This document shows, one piece after another, positions 13,148 through 38,426 of a stretch of DNA of 64,000 bases (positions within the stretch are counted from its first letter, which is position 1; each line of letters opens with the position of its first letter). The stretch is from Candidatus Thorarchaeota archaeon (GTDB taxonomy: Archaea; Asgardarchaeota; Thorarchaeia; Thorarchaeales; Thorarchaeaceae): contig JAGXOC010000001.1 of the NCBI GenBank assembly GCA_019894665.1, forward strand, positions 18,013 through 82,012, given 5' to 3'. A program made the translations under genes and the position numbers. Under the pieces are notes generated by a model. That model was given only the letters and a program-made list of their open reading frames with translations, made no database searches and was not told the origin of the DNA.

Positions 13148-13295
13148 ACATTCGAGGATGAATTATTCTTATGAAGATTCTAGAAAAAACCTACAAGAAG
13201 TCTAGTAATACTGCTCCAGTAATCGGTTTATTGAGTGACATATGGGTTGAAATTATAACCCGGGAGTCACGACAATTGTACGGACTTGTATAGCC

Positions 13296-13991
13296 ATGCG
13301 CGTTGCGTCAATCATTGACATAAGCCTCGTTGATGTACCTGGCATACCCGTCACTGTGCTTTTCACAGCAGGGTGTAACATGGATTGTCCATATTGTCAG
13401 AATGCTGAGATTATTCCCACCACTTCTGGTGATGAGATGACGATAGATGAGATTGTCCAACAGCTTCGTGGAAATCTTACTGATGGATACTGTATCACAG
13501 GTGGTGAGCCCACTATCCAAAAGGACCTTTCAGATTTACTCAAACAACTACGTTTAGAGGAATCCAAACACATCAATCTCAACACCCAAGGGACGGTTCC
13601 TGATGTTCTTCGGCAATCATTACCCTACTTAGACTCGGTATGGTTCGATATCAAAACAATTCCGTCATCTTATTGCAAGGTGACTCGTGTTGAGAAAGAT
13701 CCTTGGTCCCGTGTAGAACGAAGCATTAAGCATGTGTTAGATTCAGAAGCTTCTTTCTGGCCGAGAACGACATATGTCGGGGGTCTCACCCAATCTTCTG
13801 ACATTCTCAAAATCTCTGAAATCCTTTCAGACTTAGGATTTGAGGGAGAATACGTGGTGCAGAACTTCGTTAAATCTAAAGGAACTCGAGAGGCTGATGT
13901 AGAGTCTTTCACTGAACCCGATTTAGATGAACTCAAATCTGTCCTTGTTAATATTCCAGAAGGAATTAGCTTGCGCTTGGAATGGCGATAG
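13296..13991 (+). CDS. radical SAM protein, glycyl-radical-enzyme activase / NrdG / QueE-like
   Basis: CNMDCPYCQN (CxxxCxYCxN) near the N-terminus, then GYCITGGEPT (SAM-binding GGE motif). About 230 aa. Confidence 0.6.
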   Translation: MRVASIIDISLVDVPGIPVTVLFTAGCNMDCPYCQNAEIIPTTSGDEMTIDEIVQQLRGNLTDGYCITGGEPTIQKDLSDLLKQLRLEESKHINLNTQGTVPDVLRQSLPYLDSVWFDIKTIPSSYCKVTRVEKDPWSRVERSIKHVLDSEASFWPRTTYVGGLTQSSDILKISEILSDLGFEGEYVVQNFVKSKGTREADVESFTEPDLDELKSVLVNIPEGISLRLEWR

Positions 13992-14100: not shown

Positions 14101-14841
14101 ATGTTTCCCACACAGTCAATGGGTTATGACAGAGCTATTACAGTTTTCAGCCCTGAAGGCAGATTATACCAAGTAGAATACGCCACTGAAGCAGTCCGTC
14201 ATGGACCACTTGCAGTTGGAGTCAAGGCCAGTAATGGAGTTGTCCTGGTAGGAGAGAAACGTTCTCCTCATCCAATGGCAGATCTTGACTCTCTCAAGAA
14301 AATCCTACTTATCGATGACCATGTAGGTACAGCAATTGCTGGTCTGCATGCTGACGCACGAAAGTTGATTGATCAAGCTCGTGTCCAAGCTCAAATCAAC
14401 AGACTAAGTTATGATGAACCCATCTCGGTTTCATCTCTAGTTGTGAACATCTGTGACACCAAACAAATGCATACTCAGTACGGTGGAGTTCGACCATATG
14501 GAGTGTCACTCTTGGTAGCAGGTGTTGACGATCATGGTCCCCAACTATTCACAACCGATCCATCCGGTTCATTCTGGGGTTGGAAAGCAGCAGCTATTGG
14601 CAAAGAGGCGGACGTAGTTCGCGATTTCTTTGCTGAGAAGTACAAATCTTCAATTAATCTTGATGGTGCACTTGATTTAGCAATCGAAGGACTCTTGAAG
14701 TCTACCGACAAAGCTGAAGTTGAACCTGAAGAGAAGGCTAAGACTCTTGAGATTGGTAAGATTGACACTAAAGACAATATGTTCACAATCTTAAGTCAAG
14801 CTGAAGTCGAAGAGGTCTTGAAAGCAAGACTAGCCGCTTGA
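14101..14841 (+). CDS. psmA: 20S proteasome alpha subunit
   Basis: Classic alpha-subunit N-terminus: YDRAITVFSPEGRLYQVEYA. Length 246 aa. Confidence 0.9.
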   Translation: MFPTQSMGYDRAITVFSPEGRLYQVEYATEAVRHGPLAVGVKASNGVVLVGEKRSPHPMADLDSLKKILLIDDHVGTAIAGLHADARKLIDQARVQAQINRLSYDEPISVSSLVVNICDTKQMHTQYGGVRPYGVSLLVAGVDDHGPQLFTTDPSGSFWGWKAAAIGKEADVVRDFFAEKYKSSINLDGALDLAIEGLLKSTDKAEVEPEEKAKTLEIGKIDTKDNMFTILSQAEVEEVLKARLAA

Positions 14842-19828: not shown

Positions 19829-21106
19829 TTGATAAACCACCTACAAATCCCACACAGGACCGGGTGGATTTTTCCTATGACTAACCTCAATGTCGAACAA
19901 CTCGAGAAATGGTATCGAAAACAGCTCAGAGACAAATCGAAAGATTTCATCAAACAAGCTGAGAAGAGCTATAGGATTGTAGAAACTGCTCTAAAGGACA
20001 TTGAGGAAGTATCACAGCAGTTTAAGGAAGAAGAAGAAGAGGAACTTGAATCTGGAGGCATTGCAGCAAGATTCGCCTTAAAAGTTGGCGAGATAGTTTC
20101 TGACTTCTATGTTGACAAAGATATTACGTATGAGAACACTGAAGCTATGCAGAGTGAGATTCAGCACTTCATTCAGGAACTATGGGGTGCAGGAGCTCGC
20201 TGGATTCGTAGGATGGATAAGCGTTACAAGAATGTGATTAAGAGTCTAGACACATTCATGAAGGAACTCGCTCGAGAAATGAATAAGATAAGCAAACTGC
20301 TATTCGAGTACAGTTGGGTCAAAGAGCTAGAGAGAATCGGCGGTCGCATTGAAACCCTACACGATTTGACATTCAGCAAGGAGATATTCGAAGAACAGAT
20401 TCGGCAAGTTCGTCGCAAGATTGATAATGCTCAGAAAGAATATGATTCAGCTAAGAAGGCATACGATGATTTTACCAAAGCCTCCAATGTTTCAGAACTA
20501 CTTAATCTTGATGAACAGGCTGAACATATTAATAGCCTCCTACGAATGAAACTAAATCCTTTGAAGAAACAGGTAAAGAAATTCTTCCAACACGACACTG
20601 GCGTTCGAGTTGGACCTCCAGGCCAGAAAGCTCTGACTGAGTACTTTGAAGACCCATACACAGCGATAACAGAAGAATCTGAAGGATATCCCGGACTTCT
20701 TGAGGGACTAACAGGACTACAGGAAGCAATCGAAACCAAGAGGTTGCCCCTTAAAGATCGACTCGCACGACGGGCTATTGAAGAGGTAGAATCTATTCGG
20801 AAAGGAGGATTGCAGAAGCTCCAAGATCAAGCAAAGGAGATCGAAAACAAACGTGACACTTACGCAGGTTCTGATGTGTATACTCAAAACGAAGCATTCC
20901 AGAGCGCTCTGAATGAAGCTACGAAGAACCTGGAATATCACAGCAATGACCTACTTCGAATCAGGGATGATATCACGAGACAGATTGACAAGGTGAAAGA
21001 ATTCAAGGGTCGCGTCGAAACTGAGATTTTTGATGCTTTTAGTGAGAAAGTTACCGTACAGGTGGAAGTCAGTCTTGAACCATTACTAGACCTGTGTAAA
21101 CTCTGA
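19829..21106 (+). CDS. coiled-coil protein, unknown function
   Basis: Long charged, heptad-like helical sequence (EEEELESGG...; RKIDNAQKEYDSAKKAYDDFTKAS). No enzymatic motif. A more likely start is the ATG at 19878. Confidence 0.5.
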   Translation: MINHLQIPHRTGWIFPMTNLNVEQLEKWYRKQLRDKSKDFIKQAEKSYRIVETALKDIEEVSQQFKEEEEEELESGGIAARFALKVGEIVSDFYVDKDITYENTEAMQSEIQHFIQELWGAGARWIRRMDKRYKNVIKSLDTFMKELAREMNKISKLLFEYSWVKELERIGGRIETLHDLTFSKEIFEEQIRQVRRKIDNAQKEYDSAKKAYDDFTKASNVSELLNLDEQAEHINSLLRMKLNPLKKQVKKFFQHDTGVRVGPPGQKALTEYFEDPYTAITEESEGYPGLLEGLTGLQEAIETKRLPLKDRLARRAIEEVESIRKGGLQKLQDQAKEIENKRDTYAGSDVYTQNEAFQSALNEATKNLEYHSNDLLRIRDDITRQIDKVKEFKGRVETEIFDAFSEKVTVQVEVSLEPLLDLCKL

Positions 21107-21110
21107 AGTA

Positions 21111-21950
21111 TTGGGGATAGTGGTTTTGAGGATCCTAGTGACTTCTGAGCAAGATATTGCCAGCTTGACAATCAAAGACATACTTCTCAGTGATCATGGA
21201 TTTTCTCAAACCGACGAGTCATTTGAAGGGAATCCCATTTTTTCCAATGGCAGAAACGCCAAGGTCATAACGACCAATCGTGACATGATTCATTGTGACC
21301 ATCTCGAAACTCATTTTGATAGCGAAGTGTTCATCTTTTGTTCTAGACATCGTGCTGAATCTGGAAAACCCGCACTGCTAGTTCATAGCACGGGAAATCT
21401 TGGTAGTGAGGCACTCTTTGGTGGGACACCTCATCATCTTTCTGTTTCCGCTCCTTCTCTTGTTTCCGTCGCACTCAAGAAACTGTTTGAAGAACGAAAC
21501 AAAACTGGGTTAGATGAATTTGATGTGTCATTAGAAGTGACGCACCACGGTCCTACAATAATGAAGACCCCACTATTGTTTGTGGAGCTGGGAAGCTCTG
21601 AGGAGTACTGGACTCATCAGGGTGGTGCTAAGGCAGTGGCTGCTGCTGCAATGGATTGTGTTAACGAACCATTGTCTGGTGACGCTGTTATTGGTTTTGG
21701 CGGCACCCACTATGCTAGTAAGTTCAACAAGATAGTATTAGAGAAAGGCTACAAGATTGGGCACATGGCTCCAAAATATGCTATCAATGGTCTGACATCT
21801 GATGTCCTCAATCAAATGATTACCCATTCAACAAATCCAATCGTATCTGCTATTATAGATTGGAAAGGAATGAATGCTGAAAATAAAACACATATTCTTC
21901 CGATGTTAGAAGATGCCAATATTGAAGTGATTCGAGCAAAGAATGCGTAA
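21111..21950 (+). CDS. putative archaeal-type D-aminoacyl-tRNA deacylase (DtdA/DTD2-like)
   Basis: Size about 280 aa. Motif region FCSRHRAESGKPALLVHSTGNLG resembles the SRH...H.GN region of tRNA_deacylase proteins. Assigned from memory of the family. Confidence 0.4.
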   Translation: MGIVVLRILVTSEQDIASLTIKDILLSDHGFSQTDESFEGNPIFSNGRNAKVITTNRDMIHCDHLETHFDSEVFIFCSRHRAESGKPALLVHSTGNLGSEALFGGTPHHLSVSAPSLVSVALKKLFEERNKTGLDEFDVSLEVTHHGPTIMKTPLLFVELGSSEEYWTHQGGAKAVAAAAMDCVNEPLSGDAVIGFGGTHYASKFNKIVLEKGYKIGHMAPKYAINGLTSDVLNQMITHSTNPIVSAIIDWKGMNAENKTHILPMLEDANIEVIRAKNA

Positions 21951-22076
21951 TTTCGTAGTAAAGCTGAGTTTCTTTACATCAATTACCTCCTTCTTATTGG
22001 CTATATTACGTTCCCGAAAGGCTAATTACTCTCCCTGACACTGACGAACAATATCGCCATCTTAGTAGGGGATGCT

Positions 22077-23039
22077 ATGGTCACCGAGAAAAGCGATGCT
22101 GCTATTGAAGAAATCCAAGGAAAAGTAGACAAACTTTCTGTGGAACTTGCTAGTATACGTGAGGAGCTAACAGTGCTCACTTCCGTACCAGAAATAGACA
22201 AGAAAATTGACACTCTTAGTAAGAGTGTTGAGAAGGTTTGTGACGCTAAGGAAATTCAAGAAGTTGGAAAGAAGTTAGACGATCTGGCTAAATCGTTGAA
22301 GGGATTGGACCAAACAAAGAAACTGGACGATATCACAAAGTCAGTCATAGCGATTGACTCGACTGTGAAAGAAGTCAATGATTCCAAAGAGTCAGCTGTC
22401 ATCATAAAGAAGATTGATGATATTCTTGTGTCTCTGGCTGACAGTGAATCTGTACCAAAGAAATTGGATGACCTTCAGAATTACGTTGCAGGGCTTTCAG
22501 GTATAGAGGAGAAAGTTCAGGACCTCGCAGGCCAATTTGAAGAAACAAAAGAGATTGTGGGGATTATTGTTCGCCAACTGGATGATATTGAGCGGAAATA
22601 TAATCTGGCAATCGATAGGGTCACAGAGGCAGTTGACACACTCACCGACTTCATTAAATCCGGGGTTGCTACTTCATCTGAATCTAAGACACCTACGAAG
22701 AAACCCAATGAAACCATAGATGAAGAGAAACCCAAAATTAAACCTCCATCCACGGTTAATTTGCCATCAACCATTGACGCATTAATGGATAACCTGATGA
22801 CTCTGGTGATCCCGCAGACTGAAGCAAAAGAGATGGCTGAAGCTCTTGAGGAAGTGCGTGATGAGCTTACTACAATGATTAGGGGACACACACCGGTACT
22901 CTTCCAATTTGGTAAACGCGCTCGTGAACTGAAATCATATCCGCCAACTGCGACATTGAATGAAAATGATATTGCTAGTCTAAGTCGTGAAATCAAATCA
23001 TGGAAAAGCAAACTCAAAGAAGTGACTAGCAGTAGCTGA
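22077..23039 (+). CDS. coiled-coil protein with at least 5 tandem repeats of about 35 aa
   Basis: Repeats: KKIDTLSKSVEKV / KKLDDLAKSLKGL / KKLDDITKSVIAI / KKIDDILVSLADS / KKLDDLQNYVAGL. Confidence 0.55.
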   Translation: MVTEKSDAAIEEIQGKVDKLSVELASIREELTVLTSVPEIDKKIDTLSKSVEKVCDAKEIQEVGKKLDDLAKSLKGLDQTKKLDDITKSVIAIDSTVKEVNDSKESAVIIKKIDDILVSLADSESVPKKLDDLQNYVAGLSGIEEKVQDLAGQFEETKEIVGIIVRQLDDIERKYNLAIDRVTEAVDTLTDFIKSGVATSSESKTPTKKPNETIDEEKPKIKPPSTVNLPSTIDALMDNLMTLVIPQTEAKEMAEALEEVRDELTTMIRGHTPVLFQFGKRARELKSYPPTATLNENDIASLSREIKSWKSKLKEVTSSS

Positions 23040-23195
23040 ATTTTCCCGACTCGGACCTGAAAAATCGAGGTTCCTGTTACATAGGTTTATCTCAGTAAAA
23101 CCACAATGCGCAACGTGACTCACTTTCGGTGATTATACCGTAAACGAGAACAAATAGAGCTGGACCGGTCCAACTCTAGCAGATACAATATTTCA

Positions 23196-24017
23196 ATGGA
23201 TTTGACATTCATGAACCTCAAGAAACACAAACAAGAGCTAGCAGGCAGGATTGGTCTTCTAGATGTTGTAGCTGATAATCAGTTAGCCCTTGAGTTAATT
23301 GAGTTGCACGAGAAGAAGTGTATTATTTGCCAAGAGGATAGACTAAGTTGCACTGTTAGACCTTCATGTATGAACAGGAATTTCTTGAATGCCCTCATTG
23401 AGATAGGTGTCACACCACAGGACCTACCTAGCTTTTGTTATAGCCAGTACCTTGAGCAGATACGACGGTTTATCCTCGAGAAGAGAGGAAGAGAAATGAT
23501 AGATAGAAGAATTCCAATCAAGGATTTACTTTCGACTTTGAATGTGAGTTCTATCCGTCACTTCACAACCAAATTCAAGAAAGTCTGGAAGAACTTCTCC
23601 TCGGCACTTGAGGACAACGAAGTGCTAGTTATAGGAGATAGTTTGATCTTCAACTTTGATTTTGCGAGAGGGATTGTCACACTCAATCCGATACATGACC
23701 TAATCGACAATTTCAAGATTTTTAATCTCTACTCTCAGATTTTCTCGAACCACTTTGAACTAAAATCTAGTGTTACTGATTTAACTCTGAACTGGTGGCT
23801 TCTCTCCATTAGTGTAGAAGGCCACACACAAAGTAGTGCAAAGAGTCAACTGAAGGTTGGGTCACTAAAGGGCTTTGATGCTGTTTACACAACTGAGATT
23901 GAAGATTCGGTAAAAATTCAAGCTGAAGTCATTGCTAGGAACGAATCATCATCTCTCGAAGTAGGTCAATTGAGAGACCTGTTCCAACGAGTATCAAAGT
24001 TTGAGAAGCAAGACTAA
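23196..24017 (+). CDS. hypothetical protein with an N-terminal Cys cluster
   Basis: CIICQEDRLSCTVRPSC near the N-terminus. No known domain. Confidence 0.45.
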   Translation: MDLTFMNLKKHKQELAGRIGLLDVVADNQLALELIELHEKKCIICQEDRLSCTVRPSCMNRNFLNALIEIGVTPQDLPSFCYSQYLEQIRRFILEKRGREMIDRRIPIKDLLSTLNVSSIRHFTTKFKKVWKNFSSALEDNEVLVIGDSLIFNFDFARGIVTLNPIHDLIDNFKIFNLYSQIFSNHFELKSSVTDLTLNWWLLSISVEGHTQSSAKSQLKVGSLKGFDAVYTTEIEDSVKIQAEVIARNESSSLEVGQLRDLFQRVSKFEKQD

Positions 24018-24074
24018 GCTGACAAAATGCTGTACAAGGGTACAGTCCAATATTGTTAGTGGTGGGATGCACAA

Positions 24075-27000
24075 ATGAGTGATGAAGCAGTTACGGAAGT
24101 AGTATCCGTATTGAAAAAGAATCTAGGCATCACGGATGTCGAGTCCAAGGTAATACTACCTGTTTACCTTGGTGGGAACATGACCGCTGGTGGAGTGTCT
24201 CTCATGTCAGGTGAGAAACTACCCACGGTCAAGAAAACCCTGAAGCGACTTGTTCAGAAGGGAATGGTCAAAGAGATAGATGGCATAGTTACAATATATC
24301 GTTCTGTGCCCCCGAACTTAGCACTATCAGATAATCTGTCGTCCTTCTTGGGTGACGTTCAAAATCTGACCGAGTTATCAGAGAAGACCTTCAGCTCAAA
24401 AGACGAAGATATTGACATTAATGTTGAGAAGGTTATCACTTCTCAGGATGAATCACTAGAAACTGTCAGAACCTCTCTCGCCAAATATGAGGATGAAATG
24501 CTGGATCTAGTAGGCAGTCGCATTGATCAAGTCAAAACTACCGCTACTGCAGTGATGGGTGCTCTCTCTGAAGACATTGAGGACATTATGAACAAGCTAG
24601 ACTCATCGCTAGATAACAGACTGGGAGCCAAGCTCACTGAATTACAAGGTGAGATTGACAAGAGCCAGGTAGGATTAGAAAAAGATGCGAAACGAATTTC
24701 CCGTGAGTTCGATAAATGGTTGAAAGTTGAAAGAAAGACCACGTTAGTCACAATTTCGGAATTTGAAACCAAAGCTCAATCACTCATAGGTGTCGCGCGG
24801 GACGCAGTCACCAAAGCGCTTGAAGCATCCTCCGCTGCGCTACAGAATATCACTCAAGAAATGACAAAGGCACTGAGCTCGATGACTTCCAATGCATCCG
24901 ATAAAGGAGTCGAGATTCTCAATTCAGTGTCAGAAGACCTCACTACTCTTCTTGCTCATTTGGAAGCTGAACTAGCCCATACTTACTTAGCTAGTCAAGA
25001 ATCTCTACGAGAAGTAATGGCTCAAGCACGAACTATACCCACCGAGTTCGGAGATTTCACAAAGAACAAGATAAACGCAGCAGTTGATATTGTTGAAGGT
25101 GTGAGTAGAGATGTTGATGACTGGAAAGAAGAAGTATCTAATTTTATGGACGTGGCATCCCAATCCGTGACTTCACAACTTGAACAGGTAGCATCTACAG
25201 ATGCGAACTACATAGAGGTGCTTAAAAATACTCTCACATCACACACAGAGAAATTGAACGGAATGATTAGTGAAGAATATCATCAAGTACAAGGTCTTGC
25301 AACAACCCTTGGAACTGATTGTGAAACTACACTTGCGGATACTCGTGTTCTGGTGCTAGAACTCCTAGAGAAAGAAAATGCAACAGAGCAAGCAGGGTGT
25401 GATGAAGCAGCTAAGACACTCCACTCAGAACTTGGTAATTGGGTACAAGGCACTGTACAAAACATCGAGAAGAATATGAAAACAACATCTGATGATATTT
25501 CCACTATTCTTGATACAGAATCTAGCGAGTTAAACTCCCTTGCTGCAGCGATGAATAGTAGATTGAAATCCGCATTCAATTCGATCATCAAATCTACAAC
25601 CACAAAGAATGAAACATTGATCACCTCAGTCAAGAAAACAACGCATGACTTTGAGGCAAGTGTTGGAACACAACTGGTGAAACTGATTGGAAGTTTTGCT
25701 AATACCACAGAGAAACAAGTTCTTGATTCAAGGAAACTCTATGAACGTCTGAGAGGTCGGCTTGACAAACGAATGACTGAGAGAGTCACTACGATAAGTT
25801 CTCAGGCCGATAGAATTGAAACTGAAATTGAAGCAATAATCACGCAACAAGTAAATCGAATTGACCAACACACTTTGGGCATTCGTGATGAGTTTCATAC
25901 ACGCCTTGAAGACATAACCCGTCAATTCATTACCCTGACCCAAGGTATCGAAGCGACTTTCAATGGTCTCCTTTCTAGTCAGACTGTTGAGGCTCGTGAC
26001 TTAATTGCATCAACTCATACAGAGTTTAAGACCGCTATGAAATCTGAAATGGTTGGTCTAAAGGAAGACTCTGTGAAATTGCAGCAGGAGTACTCTACAG
26101 AGCTTGGACTCAAAATCGATGAAGTCACTTCATCAATTGCTGGCGTGAAACACGCACTTGAGGAGATATCTGTTCAAAAGCGATTTGAAATCTCAGAAAG
26201 TATGGCTAAGGCTCTTACCACTCTGGAAACTTCAATTCGGAGTACCGAAGATAATTTGCGTCAGATGGAAACTGGCATCATCAATCAATTCACAGAAAAC
26301 CTTGATCAGGTCAGTCAGGAATTCCATGTTACTGTTGATGGTACACGTGATACTATCGCAGAGCGTTTAGATAATGTTCGAGCGGTAACAACAGATGCCA
26401 TAGAGAAAAGTAGTACAGCTGCGCAAAGAGCGGCTGATGCATTTGTTTCAGAACAAAAGGACCACAAGCAGCGACACTTGGCTGATACTAGCAAGAAGAT
26501 AAACCGCCTTGCTACAAAACTAGTGAAAGCATCTAAAGTAAAAATCGAGGAATTCCGTGCTGAACTTTCCGAATGTGAAACTGGTGGAGTGAAAGGTAGG
26601 AATTCAACAAAAGAGGAGATTATTCGAGCCGTTGAGGAACGGAGAGCGGAAGTAACGCAAGCATTCGATGCTGCTTCAGTTTGGGTTGACTCAACAGTTT
26701 CCAACCTGGGAACATCACTAGAAACCTTTGGATCCAAACTTGGTAACGACCTTACATTGATGCAAAGAAATCTCCAGAAAGCAGCTGAGGAAGCTTCTGC
26801 AGCTGTAATTGAACGTGGAGATGCAGATATTGACAAACTAGCAGAGATTACAACGACGCTCTTCGAAGACGCGGAATCCACTGTCACTGCTCGAATTGAT
26901 GACTTTGGAGGCAGTTGCGCTAATGCTTTAGTCAAGGGTAACGATGCATTCACCTCAATGCCTAATACTATGACAGAAAAAATTGAAGAAGTTGACAATG

Positions 27001-27968
27001 TAATCATCAAAGAAACAAATCAAAACTACAGCAAGGTGGCTGACAAGCTATCATCTTCATTTACGGAATTCCAGCGATCTGCTGAATCAGCTTCTGAAGA
27101 GTTTCGAAATCTGCTTGAAAAATCTTCAATTCAGACAACTGAGAAACGGAACGAGGCAATCACAGCCATACAAGAGAGTGCAAATCTGACCAACCAACAT
27201 GCAGCACGAAAATTGGAAACAATAGGCTTGGAGTTAAAAACACAGCTCAGTACTCAATCCTCAACTTTGATTGAGAAAACTCAATCTGATCTGGCTGCCA
27301 AGAATCTAGTCCTAACTGAAGCTGTCACTGATGCAAGCAATCAATCGAGTGAAGGAGTAACTCTGCTCCGACAAACACGAAGCGATGCGCTCTCTGCGTT
27401 CAGTGATCAGGTGGATAAATCATTCCGACGATGGTCAAATACCCAGAAAATGGAGATAGCCTCCTTGAGTGAAAATGTACAGGAAACCATAGCTGGAGTC
27501 ACCGAATTGACTTCAAAAGCTGTTGGTAATCTCAATGCAATCCATGAAGCAAGTGAAAGAATGCTTGATGTTTCGACTAGCAGAACCTGGTATCTTAGTG
27601 GGACTCAGGAGGCCTGTGCTCATATCGGTGACATGGTCCGTCGAGCCGAAGAATCGGTCGTTGTGGCAGTTCATGATGTGTCATGTCTAGATTTGAAGAA
27701 CCTTGCGAGGATAAAGACTCCTAAAAGGAGAGTTCTCATCGTACCTGAAACAGAAGATCCAGAAACAGTTCTCGAAATTATGGCTGGCTGGCGTGTATGG
27801 CAGACAAAAACTCCAATGCTTCTTTCGGTTATTGATGATCGTGAGATTCTTATCGGAGGTGCAAGAGATTCGGACTCTCCAATAGCGGTAGTTTCCGATG
27901 ATGCTTCATATCTCAAGCTTTACCATGATGTTTTGGGTCCGCAGTTAATTCAAAACAAAGTATCTTGA
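24075..27968 (+). CDS. giant (1297 aa) coiled-coil protein: N-terminal wHTH-like domain and a C-terminal globular domain
   Basis: The N-terminal 75 aa resemble a TrmB/MarR-type wHTH (VILPVYLGGNMTAGGVSLMSGEKLPTVKKTLKRLVQKGMVKEIDG). More than 1000 aa follow with a Q/E/K/L/T-rich helical pattern. No Walker A, so not SMC/Rad50, and no MCP signalling core. Last ~150 aa non-repetitive. Confidence 0.6.
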   Translation: MSDEAVTEVVSVLKKNLGITDVESKVILPVYLGGNMTAGGVSLMSGEKLPTVKKTLKRLVQKGMVKEIDGIVTIYRSVPPNLALSDNLSSFLGDVQNLTELSEKTFSSKDEDIDINVEKVITSQDESLETVRTSLAKYEDEMLDLVGSRIDQVKTTATAVMGALSEDIEDIMNKLDSSLDNRLGAKLTELQGEIDKSQVGLEKDAKRISREFDKWLKVERKTTLVTISEFETKAQSLIGVARDAVTKALEASSAALQNITQEMTKALSSMTSNASDKGVEILNSVSEDLTTLLAHLEAELAHTYLASQESLREVMAQARTIPTEFGDFTKNKINAAVDIVEGVSRDVDDWKEEVSNFMDVASQSVTSQLEQVASTDANYIEVLKNTLTSHTEKLNGMISEEYHQVQGLATTLGTDCETTLADTRVLVLELLEKENATEQAGCDEAAKTLHSELGNWVQGTVQNIEKNMKTTSDDISTILDTESSELNSLAAAMNSRLKSAFNSIIKSTTTKNETLITSVKKTTHDFEASVGTQLVKLIGSFANTTEKQVLDSRKLYERLRGRLDKRMTERVTTISSQADRIETEIEAIITQQVNRIDQHTLGIRDEFHTRLEDITRQFITLTQGIEATFNGLLSSQTVEARDLIASTHTEFKTAMKSEMVGLKEDSVKLQQEYSTELGLKIDEVTSSIAGVKHALEEISVQKRFEISESMAKALTTLETSIRSTEDNLRQMETGIINQFTENLDQVSQEFHVTVDGTRDTIAERLDNVRAVTTDAIEKSSTAAQRAADAFVSEQKDHKQRHLADTSKKINRLATKLVKASKVKIEEFRAELSECETGGVKGRNSTKEEIIRAVEERRAEVTQAFDAASVWVDSTVSNLGTSLETFGSKLGNDLTLMQRNLQKAAEEASAAVIERGDADIDKLAEITTTLFEDAESTVTARIDDFGGSCANALVKGNDAFTSMPNTMTEKIEEVDNVIIKETNQNYSKVADKLSSSFTEFQRSAESASEEFRNLLEKSSIQTTEKRNEAITAIQESANLTNQHAARKLETIGLELKTQLSTQSSTLIEKTQSDLAAKNLVLTEAVTDASNQSSEGVTLLRQTRSDALSAFSDQVDKSFRRWSNTQKMEIASLSENVQETIAGVTELTSKAVGNLNAIHEASERMLDVSTSRTWYLSGTQEACAHIGDMVRRAEESVVVAVHDVSCLDLKNLARIKTPKRRVLIVPETEDPETVLEIMAGWRVWQTKTPMLLSVIDDREILIGGARDSDSPIAVVSDDASYLKLYHDVLGPQLIQNKVS

Positions 27969-29628: not shown

Positions 29629-30642
29629 TTGGTGTCAGTAGTGGATTCAGATAAGAAAAGATCAGATGAATACTGGATGGGTGTCCGTGATGCACTACGG
29701 ATGGTCGATAGTTTTACCAAATGGGCAAGAAGAAATGAGAGTCGTGCTAAGAATCTTGATGATTTTATTCACGATGGATTAGTTGCAGCGGCGAAACGCT
29801 GTGAGTCTTGTCTGAAAGATGACTTGGGCCTCACCTTCGTGGAAGACGAAGAGTCAGTTGATGGATCCACAGGAGATGAACAGGTACCATCTGGTTATGA
29901 GATTGGTTCTTCTTCTAAAGATTATTCAGAGCCCGAAAAATCATCAGAACCCACTTTTGGAGGAACTCCCGAAGACATGGCTACTGAAACTTCGGAAGTG
30001 CCAATTGAATCTGAAAGTGATAGCATTAGCATTGACAATGTAAGTCGTCTTGAGGAGGAAGAGATGGATGACCTGTCAATAGATGGACCTCCACGCGAGT
30101 TCACATCAGATTTTGAGCTTGTTGAGCCTACCGATCTTTTTGTCGACATGTCTGAAGCTACAGCTGAGGATGAAGTTACACACGAACCAGAAGCAGAGGA
30201 AGTAGAACCTTCAGATGCCGAGAACAAACCTTCGTTCACTTGGGCTGATTACGAAAAAGCCGTGACTCCGGATACTGAGGGTCCCGAGATTGTTGAAGAA
30301 GATGAAGCTGACGAGATTCCACCTCCTATTGAACTGGAATCTGTAGACACACCAGTACCCTTTGATGAACCGGAGCCAATATCCGAAATGGTGGAGATGC
30401 CTGAGCCACCCCCAATTCCTGCCGACGAGTCAGAGCTAGCCTCAGAACCGATGAAAGTATCTGAGCCGCCCTCAATTCCGACAGATGAGTATGAGAGCGA
30501 ACCAATTGAAGAAGAAACCGTTGAAACGACAGAAGCGCCCGACCCTATAACAGAACCACCCCCACCACCCCCACCTCCAGATAGAGATGAGGATGAAGAT
30601 GAGCGACGACGTCGAGCTCGCAGACTCTTCTTCGGGGACTAA
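29629..30642 (+). CDS. acidic, proline-rich, probably disordered protein with a small N-terminal helical domain
   Basis: About 60-aa N-terminal domain, then an E/D/P/S-rich sequence with repeats (EPPPIPADESELASEP / EPPSIPTDEYESEP), a PPPPPPPP stretch and an Arg-rich C-terminus. Confidence 0.5.
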   Translation: MVSVVDSDKKRSDEYWMGVRDALRMVDSFTKWARRNESRAKNLDDFIHDGLVAAAKRCESCLKDDLGLTFVEDEESVDGSTGDEQVPSGYEIGSSSKDYSEPEKSSEPTFGGTPEDMATETSEVPIESESDSISIDNVSRLEEEEMDDLSIDGPPREFTSDFELVEPTDLFVDMSEATAEDEVTHEPEAEEVEPSDAENKPSFTWADYEKAVTPDTEGPEIVEEDEADEIPPPIELESVDTPVPFDEPEPISEMVEMPEPPPIPADESELASEPMKVSEPPSIPTDEYESEPIEEETVETTEAPDPITEPPPPPPPPDRDEDEDERRRRARRLFFGD

Positions 30643-34441: not shown

Positions 34442-35452
34442 CTACAACTTGGTCAGGATCTGCAAGATGTTCCCAAAATTATGTTCAATAGTACGACTCT
34501 TCTCCGCATATCCCGCAAGGGTATCCAATCTGTCATCCCTTTCAGTGAGCTGGCAGAATTTGTCTGATCGGATCTCTGAATGGATCGCTTCATTTAGTTC
34601 AATTATCTCATCGGATGACTTCAGAATATATTGAAGCATCTTGATGAGCATGTTGAACTCAATGATGTCCCGAAGCTGGAGCGCCTGGCTATAAAATTGG
34701 AATTCCAATCTTGCTAATCTTTCCCTCATTGAAACTAGATTTTGAATCCATTCCTTGGCATCTTCCTCTCTTAATTCTTGACTAAGCCTGTTCCAGAAGT
34801 TTTGTTGATCAAGAAGCTGAACCAAATAGTTTCGAAGGAATTGGAAATGATCTACACCTTTTTCAATATCATCTTCAGTACCGATAGGCTCCATCATCTC
34901 ATCTGTCTGACTGTGCTTTACGGCAATCATGAGTGAGAACTTGTCCACGTATCTCTTCACTTCATCAGTTTTTTCTTTCTCTGTCAGTGCACCAGCAAAA
35001 GTATCGCCTAATGTTAAGATGAATTTGTAGAGACATTCAGAACATATCTCTGCACTACTTGAGATTTCCTTAGTTGACAGAAACTGCATAGCATCCTCTA
35101 GGTCCTTTCCTGGCACATCTTGTCTATGTATCCTCAAAACCCATCCTTGTGAGATACAATAGACTTTGTTGTCCAGGTAGTTGATGTAGATTGACGCATA
35201 GCAAACATTACCATCGGACGCCCTCTCTTCCTCCATACTGTCCTTGTCGTAGTGGAATGAGAAAATAGAAGGATCTATCTCAATGGCATCAATCTCTAGG
35301 ACGCTGTCATCGTTTACACACAGTTTTTCGTCTCCAAAAACTTTGTAGCAAGGACAACCTCTGACTAGCTTGATGCTTGATTCTTTCTCCTGCTTGCTAC
35401 TGCTTGTGCCAAACACGTTCCTTTTCTCCAACTCAAGATTGCGTTTCCTCAA
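34442..35452 (-). CDS. uncharacterised Cys-motif protein (CPCY family), paralog A
   Basis: LVRGCPCYKVFGDEKLCVNDD ... YCISQ ... CSECLYKF, then a helical C-terminal half. Paralog of the 35504-36511 gene. Confidence 0.55.
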   Translation of the reverse strand: MRKRNLELEKRNVFGTSSSKQEKESSIKLVRGCPCYKVFGDEKLCVNDDSVLEIDAIEIDPSIFSFHYDKDSMEEERASDGNVCYASIYINYLDNKVYCISQGWVLRIHRQDVPGKDLEDAMQFLSTKEISSSAEICSECLYKFILTLGDTFAGALTEKEKTDEVKRYVDKFSLMIAVKHSQTDEMMEPIGTEDDIEKGVDHFQFLRNYLVQLLDQQNFWNRLSQELREEDAKEWIQNLVSMRERLARLEFQFYSQALQLRDIIEFNMLIKMLQYILKSSDEIIELNEAIHSEIRSDKFCQLTERDDRLDTLAGYAEKSRTIEHNFGNILQILTKL

Positions 35453-35503
35453 AACGCTCTACAGGACAGGTTCAGATTACAACGAGTGGCCATTTAGAAG
35501 TTC

Positions 35504-36511
35504 TTATGCAGTATGTGTGTCTATATTGTGAAGTGCTGAAACAAGATTGCTGAACTTGTACTCTGTAGTCTTTCTCGCTTCGGAATGCTGAGAGAGCATC
35601 TCACGGATGTTGGAAGGCAAAGCATCACGTTCGACGAGACTGTTTGTTTTCTCACGAATCGAATTGTTGACAGTGATGACCTTCTCAGAGACCCCAACCA
35701 TGAACCGCAGAACACTGAGTGGATCTGTTTCATCAGACGGATCATCAAGAGATAATACTTGAAACAGGAATACTGACTCTAGACGTGCAAGGGTTCTATA
35801 GGCATCAATCAACTCAAGCAGGTCTTGCTCAACTCCAGCTTGCTTCAAGTTTAGCATCATCGATGCCCAGTGGGAGCGGCTTCTGTTGATTTCCCTAAGG
35901 TAGTTCCATAAGTGGGTATTGAAATCTGAGGGTTTTTCACTCGCTTCATACCCACTGAGTTGTATGGCCATATTGGTTGCCAACTCCCGGACATATTTTG
36001 CGATGACCTCTTGTCTCTCATCATCTGTCAGAAAGCCTTCCGAACTCTCTCCTAGGGTCCTCAGATATCTGTAAAGACAATCAGAGCAAAGGACACCATC
36101 TCTACTCTTTTCGGAGGACGTCACGAATTGCAGTGCGCTATCAATCTCAGACACTTTGACATCTTTTTCATTGATACTAATTCGTTGGTTCTGACTCACA
36201 CAATAGCAGAATCCTCCCTTTCTATCGAGAAACATCAGGAGGTAGCACATGCTCTTGTTATCGCTCATATATTCCTCTAGAAGGTGTTGCGAGTCGAGTT
36301 GATTGAAGAAACTTGGGTCAACTGAGATCGCATTGATTGGAAAGACACCATCATTATTCAAACAGACTTTCTCATCACCAAATTCCCGATAGCATGGGCA
36401 TCCTCTCACAAGATGACTAGGACCATCTGGAGAGTCTGATAATAAGCTTGAATCTATGTTCACTCGGGACGCCTCAGGTCGGATTTTGGTGACACTCCTA
36501 ATTGTGTTCAA
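35504..36511 (-). CDS. uncharacterised Cys-motif protein (CPCY family), paralog B
   Basis: LVRGCPCYREFGDEKVCLNND ... YCVSQ ... CSDCLYRY. Same length and architecture as paralog A. Confidence 0.55.
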   Translation of the reverse strand: MNTIRSVTKIRPEASRVNIDSSLLSDSPDGPSHLVRGCPCYREFGDEKVCLNNDGVFPINAISVDPSFFNQLDSQHLLEEYMSDNKSMCYLLMFLDRKGGFCYCVSQNQRISINEKDVKVSEIDSALQFVTSSEKSRDGVLCSDCLYRYLRTLGESSEGFLTDDERQEVIAKYVRELATNMAIQLSGYEASEKPSDFNTHLWNYLREINRSRSHWASMMLNLKQAGVEQDLLELIDAYRTLARLESVFLFQVLSLDDPSDETDPLSVLRFMVGVSEKVITVNNSIREKTNSLVERDALPSNIREMLSQHSEARKTTEYKFSNLVSALHNIDTHTA

Positions 36512-36591
36512 TGCTCCGACTCTGAGTTCACATTTGAATGAATCTCGGATGTTCGGAAAAAGAAAGGAGCTTGTGGGGCTCCATTATAGAA

Positions 36592-36732
36592 TCAACCCCA
36601 CAACTCTCTTTTGAGCAGATCACGAATGGCAATTCGGATAGCTTCTGATCTGTTTGGATAGAGATTACTCTCTACAAGTTTCTCTAGTCCATCAACATAA
36701 GTTTCCGGGATGTGTAAGGTTACGAGTTTCAT
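36592..36732 (-). CDS. ribbon-helix-helix (CopG/Arc-type) DNA-binding protein
   Basis: MKLVTLHIPETYVDGLEKLVESNLYPNRSEAIRIAIRDLLKRE. Start placed at the internal Met; the track ORF extends to 36804. Confidence 0.5.
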   Translation of the reverse strand: MKLVTLHIPETYVDGLEKLVESNLYPNRSEAIRIAIRDLLKRELWG

Positions 36733-37135
36733 CTCGATAATCACCTGAGTATGTTCAGCGTCATACGTGAATATGATTGTAAGTAATACTAGGTCAATAT
36801 TCAATTCAGGTAGACTTCAGAATGGCAGAGGGGGGAGCATTCCAGCTCCCGGTTCGTAAAATAGATGAACGCACATTCGCCGGGAGGAGCAATGTGCGCT
36901 CAAACAAATAGACTGAGGATGGGTCATAAGTCAGCTTGTATACTGCAGCCAATACTGGGTCAATACTTAGAGTATGATGGAGAAATGTTCACCGTATTGT
37001 TTGGGTCTGTATTGTGTATTATAACAAAATTCGACAACTATTGGATTTTCTTCGTTAATTCCCGACTTCTAGCAATACATTTATGCTGGCTCATAGTTAC
37101 CGGGGTCATTAAACAATGGATTGAGGTAGGTACTA

Positions 37136-37897
37136 ATGGCTACAAATGCTGAGAGTAAAGCGGCTGGTAAATCCGAAGATGGAGTGAAAACTTCACAAGA
37201 GCTTGAATCCCTAAAGTGGATTCGTGAAAGACGTTCCATCAGAGAATTCACTGGCGAAAAAATATCCGATGAGCACATCGAGTTGATTTTGGAAGCGGCG
37301 CGACATGCACCGAGTCCAGAGAACATGTTGATGATGCGTTTCGTTGTAATACGTGATGACCAGGATAGTAAGGTTTTCCTAGCAGATATCGCCCAGGAAA
37401 TGGCTCAAACTGCTTTCGGAGGAGCTCCATTTGAACTCACAAGTGGAAGAAACTGGTTTATCAGTGATCCTTACAGAGCGGCAGTCTATGCGAGACTGAG
37501 GGATGGAGAGTTATTCAGATATCCGGAAAAGAGCGACACTGTGATTATTGTTTGTGCAAGTGAAGCTTGGCATGATGCTGGATATCTCTACCCCAATTCA
37601 CTATTTGGATCGGTAGTCTGTGGAATGGCAATCCAAAATATGTGGCTGACCGCCACAGAACTTGGATATGGATGCGGGTATGAGGCACTAGTCTGTTCTG
37701 ATCCCCGTCATGCTCAACTTCTACGTGACCGATTCGGCATCCCACCAATTTGGGAGCCTATAACTGCCTTTTGTATTGGCCAGCGCGTTTCACCACGTGC
37801 TTTAGGTCCCAGCAGAGCCCCTCTTGAGGGTCTGATGTACGAAGAGCGATGGGGCAAACCATACAAGAGACTCGCGTTCAGGAAGGAGGACAAGTAA
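37136..37897 (+). CDS. nitroreductase-family flavoprotein, copy 1
   Basis: RERRSIREFTGEKISDEHIELILEAARHAPSPENMLMMRFVVIRDD matches the nitroreductase N-terminal region. Paralog of the 44358-45122 gene. Confidence 0.65.
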   Translation: MATNAESKAAGKSEDGVKTSQELESLKWIRERRSIREFTGEKISDEHIELILEAARHAPSPENMLMMRFVVIRDDQDSKVFLADIAQEMAQTAFGGAPFELTSGRNWFISDPYRAAVYARLRDGELFRYPEKSDTVIIVCASEAWHDAGYLYPNSLFGSVVCGMAIQNMWLTATELGYGCGYEALVCSDPRHAQLLRDRFGIPPIWEPITAFCIGQRVSPRALGPSRAPLEGLMYEERWGKPYKRLAFRKEDK

Positions 37898-37898
37898 T

Positions 37899-38426
37899 AT
37901 GGACGTCAATTTTGAAGGTAAAACTCTAGATAACATGAAGGAATTAGCTGAAGAGGCTGGTCTTACCCCTGAAGGCTTTATCGAGGTTGTCATGGAGCAA
38001 TTCGTTGACAACAAAGGTGGACGAGTCTACTCAGGCAGATGGTCCGGTGGAGTTGTTGACGGCGAAAAGGGCTTTCGCTATGTCCCGCAATGGCCTTTCC
38101 GACCCGGCTTCAAAGAAGCCGAGGGAGACAAGGTGAAGGGCTGGAAGTCTGGAGGCAAATCTTTCAGACCTCATCCTACTGGAGCTTGGCCTTTCTATCC
38201 GCGACTGAAAGAAGGCGACATCGAGCACGAATACTGGAACACTAAGAAGATGATTCATCAATCCTTCATCAACGACAGAAAGGGACGCGTTGTAGTACTA
38301 ATGGATGGCGACAGATATGATAACTTTCTCGACAAGGTGAAAGCGAGGAAAGGTAATTTCTGGGCGAACTCCGTTGACGATTCTATGCAAGAGGCTGTGG
38401 ATGACTGGATGGCTAAGGAGGAATGA
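37899..38426 (+). CDS. hypothetical Gly/Trp/Lys-rich protein
   Basis: 175-aa ORF translationally coupled between the nitroreductase and the SCP2 gene (GRWSGGVVDGEKGFRYVPQWPFRPGFKEAEGDKVKGWKSGGKSFRPHPTGAWPFYPRLKEG). No known domain. Confidence 0.5.
   Translation: MDVNFEGKTLDNMKELAEEAGLTPEGFIEVVMEQFVDNKGGRVYSGRWSGGVVDGEKGFRYVPQWPFRPGFKEAEGDKVKGWKSGGKSFRPHPTGAWPFYPRLKEGDIEHEYWNTKKMIHQSFINDRKGRVVVLMDGDRYDNFLDKVKARKGNFWANSVDDSMQEAVDDWMAKEE

Follow-up and report, generated by a model that had tools for sequence, protein, structure and literature searches.

A Thorarchaeota locus linking a CdrS/aCcr1-like regulator gene to two paralogous six-cysteine proteins

Genes and conserved elements of the locus

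The window considered here is a stretch of 64,000 nucleotides from a Candidatus Thorarchaeota genome (GenBank assembly GCA_019894665.1, contig JAGXOC010000001.1, positions 18,013 to 82,012). It contains a very small ribbon-helix-helix (RHH) gene followed by two paralogous genes, B and A. These genes, the domains of their products and the conserved non-coding elements between and upstream of them are listed in Table 1.

Table 1. Genes, protein domains and non-coding elements of the RHH-B-A locus; positions are those of the window
Feature	Coordinates	Strand	Description	Remark
Gene A	34442..35416	-	324 aa, GTG start	maximal ORF to 35452
A, C-terminal helical half	34442..34996	-	five to six long helices	
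A, N-terminal six-cysteine domain	34997..35383	-	residues 24-152 of the 336-aa ORF	
Gene B	35504..36463	-	319 aa, GTG start	maximal ORF to 36511
B, N-terminal six-cysteine domain	36041..36427	-	residues 29-157 of the 335-aa ORF	by alignment with the A domain
Second conserved intergenic element	36531..36551	-	CATCCGAGATTCATTCAAATG	
Terminator-like hairpin	36555..36582	-	GGAGC-N7-GCTCC, then T-run	directly after the RHH stop codon
RHH gene	36592..36732	-	46 aa, ATG start at 36732	
Promoter/operator element, non-coding	36736..36795	-	GACCTAGTATTACTTACAATCATATTCACGTATGAC-N12-AGGTGATTATC	predicted from conservation

The maximal TTG-start ORFs of the two paralogs encode 336 aa (A, 34442..35452) and 335 aa (B, 35504..36511), both on the minus strand. 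Homologs of A are 322-324 aa long and those of B are 319-320 aa long; these lengths, together with the sequence itself, are the reason to place the starts at the GTG codons given in the table. The products of A and B share 31% identity over 309 residues (BLASTP, E 1e-51). Thus an earlier note on this DNA was right in describing two neighboring paralogs on the minus strand, whereas the equal lengths of 336 and 335 aa that it gave them belong to over-extended TTG starts, 324 and 319 aa being likelier. The RHH ORF (36592..36804, 70 aa) is over-extended as well: annotations of 54 contigs have a 46-aa protein identical to the RHH product, and the 24 surplus codons overlie the conserved non-coding promoter element.

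Comparison with a relative (L006) yields dN/dS values of about 0.04 for A, about 0.09 for B and 0 for RHH, and therefore the three are genuine genes on which purifying selection acts, strongly so in the case of A and B. Across the Thorarchaeota loci the identity is 82-100% for RHH, 50-85% (mostly 60% or more) for A and 26-88% for B; A is the better-conserved paralog and B the fast-evolving one. Both proteins are acidic (pI 4.4-5.0) and have no hydrophobic segment, and thus they are neither nucleic-acid binders nor membrane proteins.

The RHH-B-A order is observed in 59 of the 69 Thorarchaeota species genomes, and it is retained in the divergent lineage L076. In metagenomes, B and A follow in all 19 loci where RHH is at least 87% identical and enough downstream sequence is available. 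The linkage of the RHH gene with the paralogs thus holds outside the genome in which it was first seen. The three genes are co-directional throughout. Rearrangements are found on both flanks, but almost never within the trio: the distance between RHH and a nitroreductase gene upstream of it varies from 0.4 to 3.7 kb, and many loci have an additional segment of about 1 kb between A and the gene encoding a CxxCxxCC protein (PF03692). A block of 8-10 kb comprising the latter gene, an aminotransferase gene, a DUF362 gene and ThiF is also syntenic across the class, and thus the adjacency of RHH, B and A may in part reflect inherited synteny.

The RHH gene and its promoter box

The RHH protein matches PF01402 (4e-8), and like CdrS it has the RHH fold in a very small protein. 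Its top NCBIfam match is CdrS (NF058555) with 51.5 bits, under the curated cutoff of 100; however, this model describes a haloarchaeal equivalog, and the ftsZ-linked RHH proteins of Asgard archaea also stay below the cutoff (46.0 and 40.6 bits). The score against aCcr1 (NF053762) is 21 bits (E 2e-4), with a curated cutoff of 60.

The closest non-identical relatives of the RHH gene sit directly upstream of ftsZ. There are 18 such loci, where an RHH protein 62-76% identical to the 46-aa one is encoded 20-150 nt upstream of FtsZ, where FtsZ was confirmed by the Pfam domains Tubulin and FtsZ_C in three cases and by TIGR00065 in two (420 and 393 bits), and recognized in the others from the tubulin signature motif. 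Several of the ftsZ-linked RHH proteins are annotated as Thorarchaeota proteins, with lengths of 60-61 aa; the 46-aa protein does not have their C-terminal tail of 10-15 residues. The gene adjoining the 46-aa RHH downstream is B and not ftsZ, whereas cdrS lies immediately upstream of ftsZ2. Since this RHH gene precedes B-A while its relatives precede ftsZ, it is to be regarded as a paralog of the ftsZ-linked gene. Judging by similarity and gene context, it is a paralog, specific to Thorarchaeota, of CdrS/aCcr1, the archaeal regulator of cell division, and the in silico evidence indicates that the regulator was duplicated in Thorarchaeota, one copy standing before ftsZ and the other before B-A. 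It follows that B and A stand behind this CdrS copy where ftsZ stands behind the other, and on this ground they are candidates for a function in cell division or one linked to GTPases. The RHH gene had been noticed earlier as a CopG-type regulator upstream of the paralogs in the same orientation. The gene is indeed there, but it is not a generic CopG.

Replacement of FtsZ2 by B and A was considered and rejected, since a published table (PMC8970359 supplement) shows Thorarchaeota with two FtsZ genes and since they have a second CdrS copy, linked to ftsZ. Neither B nor A is a divergent FtsZ or tubulin: they have no Pfam Tubulin match and their predicted fold is different. Neither FtsZ nor the tubulin signature GGGTGxG occurs anywhere in the window.

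CdrS, for "cell division regulator short", is encoded in the cdrS-ftsZ2 locus of Halobacteria and other archaea (PMC7439475, PMC8406309). Both loci have a very small, highly conserved RHH gene directly upstream of its partner gene or genes and co-directional with them. However, in Thorarchaeota the RHH gene is followed by B-A instead of ftsZ and encodes 46 aa without the C-terminal tail, and a hairpin and a separate promoter of B lie between RHH and B, whereas cdrS and ftsZ2 are co-transcribed in Halobacterium. The other known system is that of aCcr1, an RHH cell-cycle regulator of Sulfolobales and their viruses, which represses cdvA; its aCcr1-box is a 9-bp palindromic element with the experimentally defined site AGTATTA (PMC9976878, PMC9976892). 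Both regulators are small RHH proteins extremely conserved within their clades. However, the similarity of the Thorarchaeota protein to aCcr1 is weak, no cdvA is present at the RHH-B-A locus, and scans of viral contigs with RHH and with the A/B family revealed no homologs.

The palindromic box AGTATTACT is part of the promoter element upstream of RHH, together with another heptad, GTATGAC, and an invariant CATATT. Of 72 sources, 64 have the element, once at each locus and on the operon strand; it is unique in the window, where 0 chance matches are expected. The box AGTATTAC or AGTAATAC is kept upstream of RHH in 59 of 61 loci. The candidate box AGTATTAC(T) is identical to the experimentally determined aCcr1 site (PMC9976892, PMC9976878), and, like an aCcr1-type box, AGTATTA (AGTAWTACN), it is situated in the region of the TATA-like element and the start codon, between them or around them. 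The layout GTAWTAY-N7-CATATC is seen upstream of the ftsZ-linked RHH paralogs too. Folding of the GTATGAC...CATAC segment into a hairpin is not conserved across loci, and thus the element is read as a DNA operator/promoter. The conserved non-coding elements of the locus matched no known RNA family. Between RHH and B, as between B and A, the aCcr1-type box is missing (0-1 of 61 loci).

The sequence of the terminator-like hairpin after the RHH gene is conserved in close relatives, and B has a BRE/TATA promoter of its own in at least 26 of the 61 loci. With a box only before RHH, a hairpin after it and a promoter before B, what is established is the adjacency of the genes, whereas co-transcription and direct regulation of B-A are conjectural. 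Thus of the "regulated unit" proposed in the earlier note, the conserved adjacency with RHH stands, whereas the reading as a single regulated operon is oversimplified. The pattern of the second intergenic element, CATCCGAGATTCATTCAAATG, occurs in 38 of 72 sources, about 35 times at the intergenic position, the remaining matches being weaker and located elsewhere. Its sequence is similar to the 3' end of the RHH coding region.

A protein family with six invariant cysteines

In each of the two proteins, about 125 residues on the N-terminal side form an acidic domain, and about 180 residues on the C-terminal side form a helical bundle. The cysteines of the A domain follow the pattern C-P-[C]-x9-C-x-N ... 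C ... C ... C-x-x-C-[LI]-Y, and the B domain has the same invariant ones. C33, C45, C84, C99, C137 and C140 are invariant family-wide, including the distant stand-alone and Arf-fused members described below; C35 is conserved in about 90% of the family. The helical half of A ends in the invariant motif E-x-x-F-x-N-[IL]-[LV]-x-x-L. These observations bear out much of the earlier description of the proteins: the motifs VRGCPCY..FGDEK.C.N.D, YC[IV]SQ and CS[ED]CLY[KR] are found in both paralogs and conserved, the cysteine positions persist among homologs, distant members included, and the helical C-terminal half is backed by the AlphaFold model.

The family had also been described as unrecognizable, and this was confirmed. 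Scans of A, B and 54 further family members against Pfam, NCBIfam, PADLOC and PHROGs gave nothing significant, and searches of PDB sequences, both with single sequences and with profiles, gave no match. The predicted structure of the cysteine domain is confident, but no PDB entry with a matching fold was found. In particular, it has no fold or profile likeness to solved members of the zinc ribbon, treble clef, RING/B-box and ArfGAP groups, and the canonical Fe-S spacings (CX2CX2CX3C or CX3CX2C) are absent. The helical half resembles generic bundles of three to five helices, for instance those of MIT, Bro1, CNOT3-N and ScdA, on the level of topology only, with 5-17% identity and no family-specific residues; the conserved His and Glu of the di-iron protein ScdA are missing.

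The homolog searches yielded 223 and 164 proteins, and every named one is from Thorarchaeota, with the exception of one mislabelled Thermoplasmata MAG. The family is rare, with 62 matches among 1.84 billion representative proteins. These searches show an undescribed family which, as sampled in the databases, is confined to Asgard archaea.

Members of the family that are encoded away from the core locus of Thorarchaeota have no RHH gene beside them. In one cluster of about three sequences, named as Heimdallarchaeota Arf-family protein, the cysteine domain is fused to an Arf GTPase domain (Pfam Arf, 1e-43). One stand-alone copy of the cysteine domain is encoded 1-2 kb from a pair of Arf-like and Roadblock genes. 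The other stand-alone contexts contain no GTPase genes and no consistent partner, and a metagenome scan with the stand-alone proteins found nothing. Small GTPase genes are absent from the window, and no GTPase gene belongs to the conserved Thorarchaeota locus of A and B.

The ArfGAP zinc finger (PF01412) is a cysteine-rich domain that works with Arf-family GTPases and has the pattern C-x2-C-x16-C-x2-C. The A/B domain may be likened to it by way of analogy, as both are cysteine-rich, comprise about 120-130 residues and are associated with Arf, in the A/B case by fusion in some Asgard MAGs. However, the A/B pattern is C-x-C-x9-C...C...C...C-x2-C, and the domain has no conserved arginine, no Pfam match and no PDB fold match.

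Possible function of A and B

The reading that we prefer, with a probability of about 0.35, is that A and B form a metal-stabilized adaptor pair tied to cell division or GTPase signaling. The six cysteines would hold a structural metal, most likely zinc, stabilizing a compact partner-binding module, and the two proteins would associate by way of the helical halves, giving a hetero-oligomeric adaptor or scaffold. Such a pair may serve the cell-division or cell-cycle program under CdrS paralogs. It may also engage small Arf-type GTPases, since the cysteine domain is fused to one in other Asgard archaea. The RHH protein probably represses its own promoter via the box, which would be an operator shared with the cdrS-ftsZ locus, and the main promoter of B-A is probably their own.

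One possibility, tentative but to be taken seriously, is that the genes are neighbors simply by inheritance: A and B would be cytosolic metal- or Fe-S-binding proteins with a role outside division, for instance in the handling of redox equivalents or cofactors, and RHH would merely be adjacent. Conservation of the whole 8-10 kb block together with the trio is consistent with this, as are the hairpin after RHH, the separate promoter of B, the restriction of the box to RHH, and the family members that occur elsewhere with no RHH neighbor. However, insertions and rearrangements occur on the flanks and almost never affect the inside of RHH-B-A, the three genes always keep one direction, and the paralogous RHH is tightly coupled to the ftsZ downstream of it. 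An unlikely alternative follows from the Arf fusion in Heimdall-labelled MAGs and from the stand-alone copy near the Arf-like and Roadblock pair: A and B may be effectors or regulators of Arf-like GTPases in Asgard membrane and cytoskeleton dynamics, independent of the cell cycle, with the cysteine domain as the GTPase-binding module. Here the rarity of the fusion, the lack of a GTPase gene in the window, at the conserved locus and in the other stand-alone contexts, and the lack of a conserved arginine finger or an ArfGAP match all argue in the opposite direction.

Slightly more doubtful is that A and B are sensors or co-regulators of RHH itself, a redox- or metal-sensing cysteine domain modulating the DNA binding of the tail-less CdrS paralog by analogy with the metal-binding domain of NikR. 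The missing tail, the invariance of the six cysteines, the stable adjacency of the genes and the acidity of A and B, which could mimic DNA or bind a basic surface of RHH, would fit such a role, but two paralogs as large as about 320 aa, each with a bundle of long helices, exceed the needs of a sensor, and the domain is also found, standing alone or fused to Arf, where there is no RHH. Two further readings are very improbable. Homolog P0110 is labelled TFIIB/Brf1 by JGI, and the length of the proteins and their layout of a Cys-rich N-terminal and a helical C-terminal part superficially resemble those of a transcription factor akin to TFIIB/Brf or to cyclins, in which a zinc ribbon at the N-terminus is followed by cyclin folds; however, A and B do not have the TFIIB zinc ribbon with two cyclin folds, and this reading is effectively refuted. 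The labelling of RHH as ParD in several databases, with source annotations such as "antitoxin ParD1/3/4", and the order of an RHH gene and then downstream genes, would suit a toxin-antitoxin or defense module with an RHH antitoxin and one or more toxins. Such a module is hardly compatible with a single-copy locus at a fixed position across the class (59 species genomes), with the 82-100% conservation of RHH, with the absence of PADLOC and PHROGs matches and of copies on viral contigs, or with downstream genes that are large and acidic and separated by gaps of 80-200 nt.

In its most far-reaching and frankly speculative form, the preferred reading of A and B as an adaptor pair becomes an Asgard-specific module of division or membrane remodeling. 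A and B would then be a hetero-oligomeric scaffold whose zinc-stabilized domain recruits Arf-type GTPases or division proteins, wired to the CdrS/aCcr1 circuit of ftsZ via the duplicated regulator, and thus a third player beside FtsZ and ESCRT-III. If A and B act in division or GTPase signaling, they would be a lineage-specific addition to the machinery that is regarded as the source of eukaryotic cell biology; if they have no such role, the family nevertheless lends itself well to structural genomics. A domain with six invariant cysteines and a predicted structure that has no counterpart among solved folds or described families is new. There is also in silico evidence that the CdrS/aCcr1 regulator and its box AGTATTAC, known from Halobacteria and Sulfolobales, extend to Asgard archaea. 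Finally, the fusion ties the new cysteine domain to Arf-family GTPases.

Gene models and conservation of the RHH-B-A locus

The tandem genes A and B, whose products combine a six-cysteine N-terminal domain (the cysteine domain) with a helical C-terminal half, lie downstream of a short ribbon-helix-helix gene, here RHH. As the earlier note supposed, A and B are paralogs (31% identity across 309 residues, E 1e-51). The RHH product, MKLVTLHIPETYVDGLEKLVESNLYPNRSEAIRIAIRDLLKRELWG, matches Pfam RHH_1 and is annotated in exactly this form on 54 contigs. All three are genuine genes under strong constraint, because in the comparison with the related locus L006 (protein identity 84-85%) the dN/dS values are 0.086/2.05 for A, 0.092/0.98 for B and 0/0.66 for RHH.

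Features of the RHH-B-A region and of other parts of the window
Feature	Position	Strand	Remarks
Gene A	34442..35452	minus	maximal ORF 336 aa; likely GTG start 35416 (324 aa), from homolog lengths and sequence
C-terminus of A, with the closing motif	34442-34500	minus	
Gene B	35504..36511	minus	maximal ORF 335 aa; likely GTG start 36463 (319 aa), from homolog lengths and sequence
C-terminus of B, with the closing motif	35504-35560	minus	
RHH-B spacer	36464-36591	minus	128 nt
Second intergenic element	36531-36551	minus	CATCCGAGATTCATTCAAATG; just past the RHH terminator
Hairpin and T-run	36555-36582		after the RHH stop codon
RHH gene	36732..36592	minus	ATG start, 46 aa; the listed small ORF 36592..36804 is over-extended
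Conserved non-coding element	36736-36795		upstream of RHH; about 60 nt, once per locus in 64/72 sources
Nitroreductase and 175-aa protein genes	37136-38426	plus	
Coiled-coil protein genes	19829-27968	plus	
Acidic ORF	29629-30642	plus	337 aa
Second AGTAATACT box	13204-13212		
Radical-SAM gene	13296-13991		
Proteasome alpha subunit gene	14101-14841		

The linkage of RHH with the paralogs extends to other genomes. When one genome of each species was scanned, 69 loci were recovered; their labels are Thorarchaeota, Promethearchaeota (the phylum name), just "archaeon" or "uncultured archaeon", and in one case Hermodarchaeota. Of these, 59 keep the order RHH-B-A on one strand and five are truncated at contig ends. 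The other five are genuine variants, namely RHH-A alone, RHH-A-A' (two loci), RHH-B alone and a lone divergent copy that lacks RHH. The identity across loci is 50-85% for A (mostly at least 60%), 26-88% for B and 82-100% for RHH. Around the intact trio the flanks are variable: between 0.4 and 3.7 kb separate RHH from the nitroreductase gene, and an additional 1 kb or so is frequent between A and the CxxCxxCC gene. A very divergent B (P0262) retains the arrangement.

In about ten Thorarchaeota species B-A are preceded by two tandem 46-aa RHH copies, 76-100% identical to the window copy (loci L028, L030-L032, L035, L036, L039, L047, L049, L063, L069). Throughout Thorarchaeota the nitroreductase gene is paired with a gene for a 175-aa protein of unknown family; this conserved pair lies upstream of RHH, on the opposite strand.

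The cysteine-domain family

Neither single sequences nor profiles of the A/B family have a significant match in Pfam, NCBIfam, PADLOC, PHROGs or PDB sequences, in agreement with the earlier note, which recognised no family. On present evidence this is a new protein family, with no described relative by sequence or solved structure for the whole proteins or for the N-terminal domain. The homologs of A (n=223) and B (n=164) come, where the source is named, from Thorarchaeota MAGs, except one Thermoplasmata-labelled MAG (P0079), and locus tags place A and B side by side in many sources. Viral contigs yielded no family member. Among 1.84 billion representative proteins, a profile of both paralogs matched only 62, including full-length proteins, proteins of about 135 aa consisting of the N-terminal domain alone, and two with an Arf-family GTPase domain (Pfam Arf, 1e-43) N-terminal to the cysteine domain. 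According to exact-sequence look-ups, the stand-alone copies belong to Thorarchaeota and the Arf fusion comes from a Heimdallarchaeota MAG; a divergent single-copy form is from an "Asgard group archaeon".

The cysteine positions first noted in A and B are conserved among the homologs. C33, C45, C84, C99, C137 and C140 (numbering of the 336-aa ORF of A) are invariant across A, B, stand-alone proteins and Arf fusions; C35 is conserved in about 90% of the family, and P34, N47 and Y142 are invariant or almost so. The pattern is C-P-[C]-x9-C-x-N ... C ... C ... C-x-x-C-[LI]-Y, and its conservation suggests metal binding. The full-length AlphaFold model (pLDDT 74.6) consists of a beta-rich N-terminal domain and five or six long helices, as expected from the helical C-terminal half described earlier; the N-terminal domain modelled alone with a more diverse alignment reached pLDDT 89.4 and pTM 0.84. 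Both proteins are acidic (pI 4.7 and 4.85; N-terminal domains 4.4 and 4.8), and no hydrophobic segment was found in their sequences, which argues against nucleic-acid binding and membrane insertion.

Both A and B are closed by an invariant amphipathic motif, E-x-x-F-x-N-[IL]-[LV]-x-x-L, loosely resembling a MIM1-type peptide. In the "Asgard group archaeon" assembly GCA_011366245.1 (locus L002, 7705-8726) the Arf fusion gene appears as two overlapping ORFs (100 and 241 aa), probably because of a frameshift or sequencing error; intact 337-aa fusions occur elsewhere (P0297, P0322). Stand-alone cysteine-domain genes on two Thorarchaeota contigs (L072, L073) share, on their upstream side, genes for an MFS transporter and for a TrmB-MEDS regulator. 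Contig L073 also has, 1-2 kb downstream and on the opposite strand, an Arf-like GTPase gene and a Roadblock gene.

Identity of RHH and signals around it

RHH is a new paralog within a known family of regulators. Of the curated models, that of the archaeal cell-division regulator CdrS matches it best (51.5 bits, under the haloarchaeal cutoff of 100), followed by NikR N-termini and aCcr1, the Sulfolobales cell-cycle regulator (21 bits). A metagenome scan with the RHH alignment returned 80 loci. Wherever RHH identity is at least 87% and the downstream sequence is sufficient, B-A follow. In 18 loci with identity of 62-76%, FtsZ is encoded 20-150 nt downstream (confirmed by Pfam Tubulin and FtsZ_C on three and by TIGR00065, at 420 and 393 bits, on two; elsewhere flagged by the tubulin signature motif). 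Annotated copies of these RHHs, which have 55-61 residues, occur in MAGs of Baldr-, Odin-, Hermod-, Frey- and Thorarchaeota, and their promoters have the same GTAWTAY-N7-CATATC layout as that of RHH before B-A. In four metagenome loci (L138, L119, L155, L144) a second CdrS-type RHH of Thorarchaeota, 60-61 aa, is directly upstream of ftsZ; this arrangement is an Asgard counterpart of cdrS-ftsZ2 and has an aCcr1-like box. Since ftsZ-linked RHHs are annotated in Thorarchaeota as well, this group has two CdrS-type genes, a canonical 60-aa one upstream of ftsZ and a tail-less 46-aa one upstream of B-A. Compared with the cdrS-ftsZ locus, B-A hold the equivalent position downstream of the duplicated regulator. 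They do not replace FtsZ, as Thorarchaeota retain two FtsZ genes (published table, PMC8970359 supplement).

The conserved element upstream of RHH, GAcc.aGTAtTACTcacaatcATATT.a.GTATgAC-N12-AGgtGAtta.c, is unique in the window and starts with the nine-base palindrome AGTA(T/A)TACT. The GTA[AT]TAC box is present upstream of RHH in 59/61 loci, and in the RHH-B or B-A spacers of only 0-1 of 61. In at least 26 of 61 loci, B is preceded at a distance of about 100 nt by a canonical BRE/TATA (AAGAAAnnTTGATAT). Thus, of the regulated unit suggested in the earlier note, the adjacency stands; the hairpin after RHH, the separate BRE/TATA of B in many loci and the near-confinement of the box to the RHH promoter make a single unit questionable. 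The best-supported picture is a putatively autoregulated RHH gene adjoining a separately promoted B-A pair. Read-through from RHH into B-A is possible, and direct control of B-A by RHH is unproven.

The RHH-B spacer of the window is shorter than that of close relatives (L003-L009; about 220 nt). The missing 90 nt or so contain, in the relatives, the BRE/TATA-like promoter of B and the palindrome CATATTCATGAATATG; either a true deletion or a difference in assembly may be responsible. The pattern of the second intergenic element occurs in 38 of 72 sources, in about 35 at the same intergenic position. Its translation, IRDSFKCEL, resembles the RHH C-terminus IRDLLKRELWG; the element could be what is left of a partial RHH duplication, or else a functional site.

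A radical-SAM gene, followed by the proteasome alpha subunit gene, lies 85 nt downstream of the second exact AGTAATACT box. This box may be meaningless, since about 0.5 exact matches are expected by chance. In Haloferax, CdrS targets include proteasome genes.

Possible roles of A and B

We tentatively prefer, with a probability of about 0.35, a reading in which the cysteine domain would be a metal-stabilised module for partner binding, A and B would form a hetero-oligomeric adaptor via their helical halves, and the pair would take part in the cell-division or cell-cycle programme of the CdrS paralogs, possibly via Arf-type GTPases. Its strongest rival, doubtful but to be taken seriously, is that the adjacency to RHH is inherited synteny and A and B do something unrelated, such as redox or cofactor handling. 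It is rather improbable that A and B are effectors of a GTPase independently of the cell cycle, and slightly more so that they serve as a sensor or co-regulator for the tail-less RHH. A toxin-antitoxin system is effectively excluded by the retention of the trio and by the PADLOC and PHROGs searches, as is the TFIIB/cyclin reading by the family searches.

Elsewhere in the window, the extremely acidic, Pro/Glu-rich 337-aa ORF, ending in RRRRARRLFFGD, has no family match and lies between the ThiF gene and a series of genes for large predicted coiled-coil proteins. Among the latter, a 1297-aa protein combines an N-terminal TrmB HTH with apolipoprotein-like helical repeats, and another, of 320 aa, gives weak ATG17-like and P10 matches.
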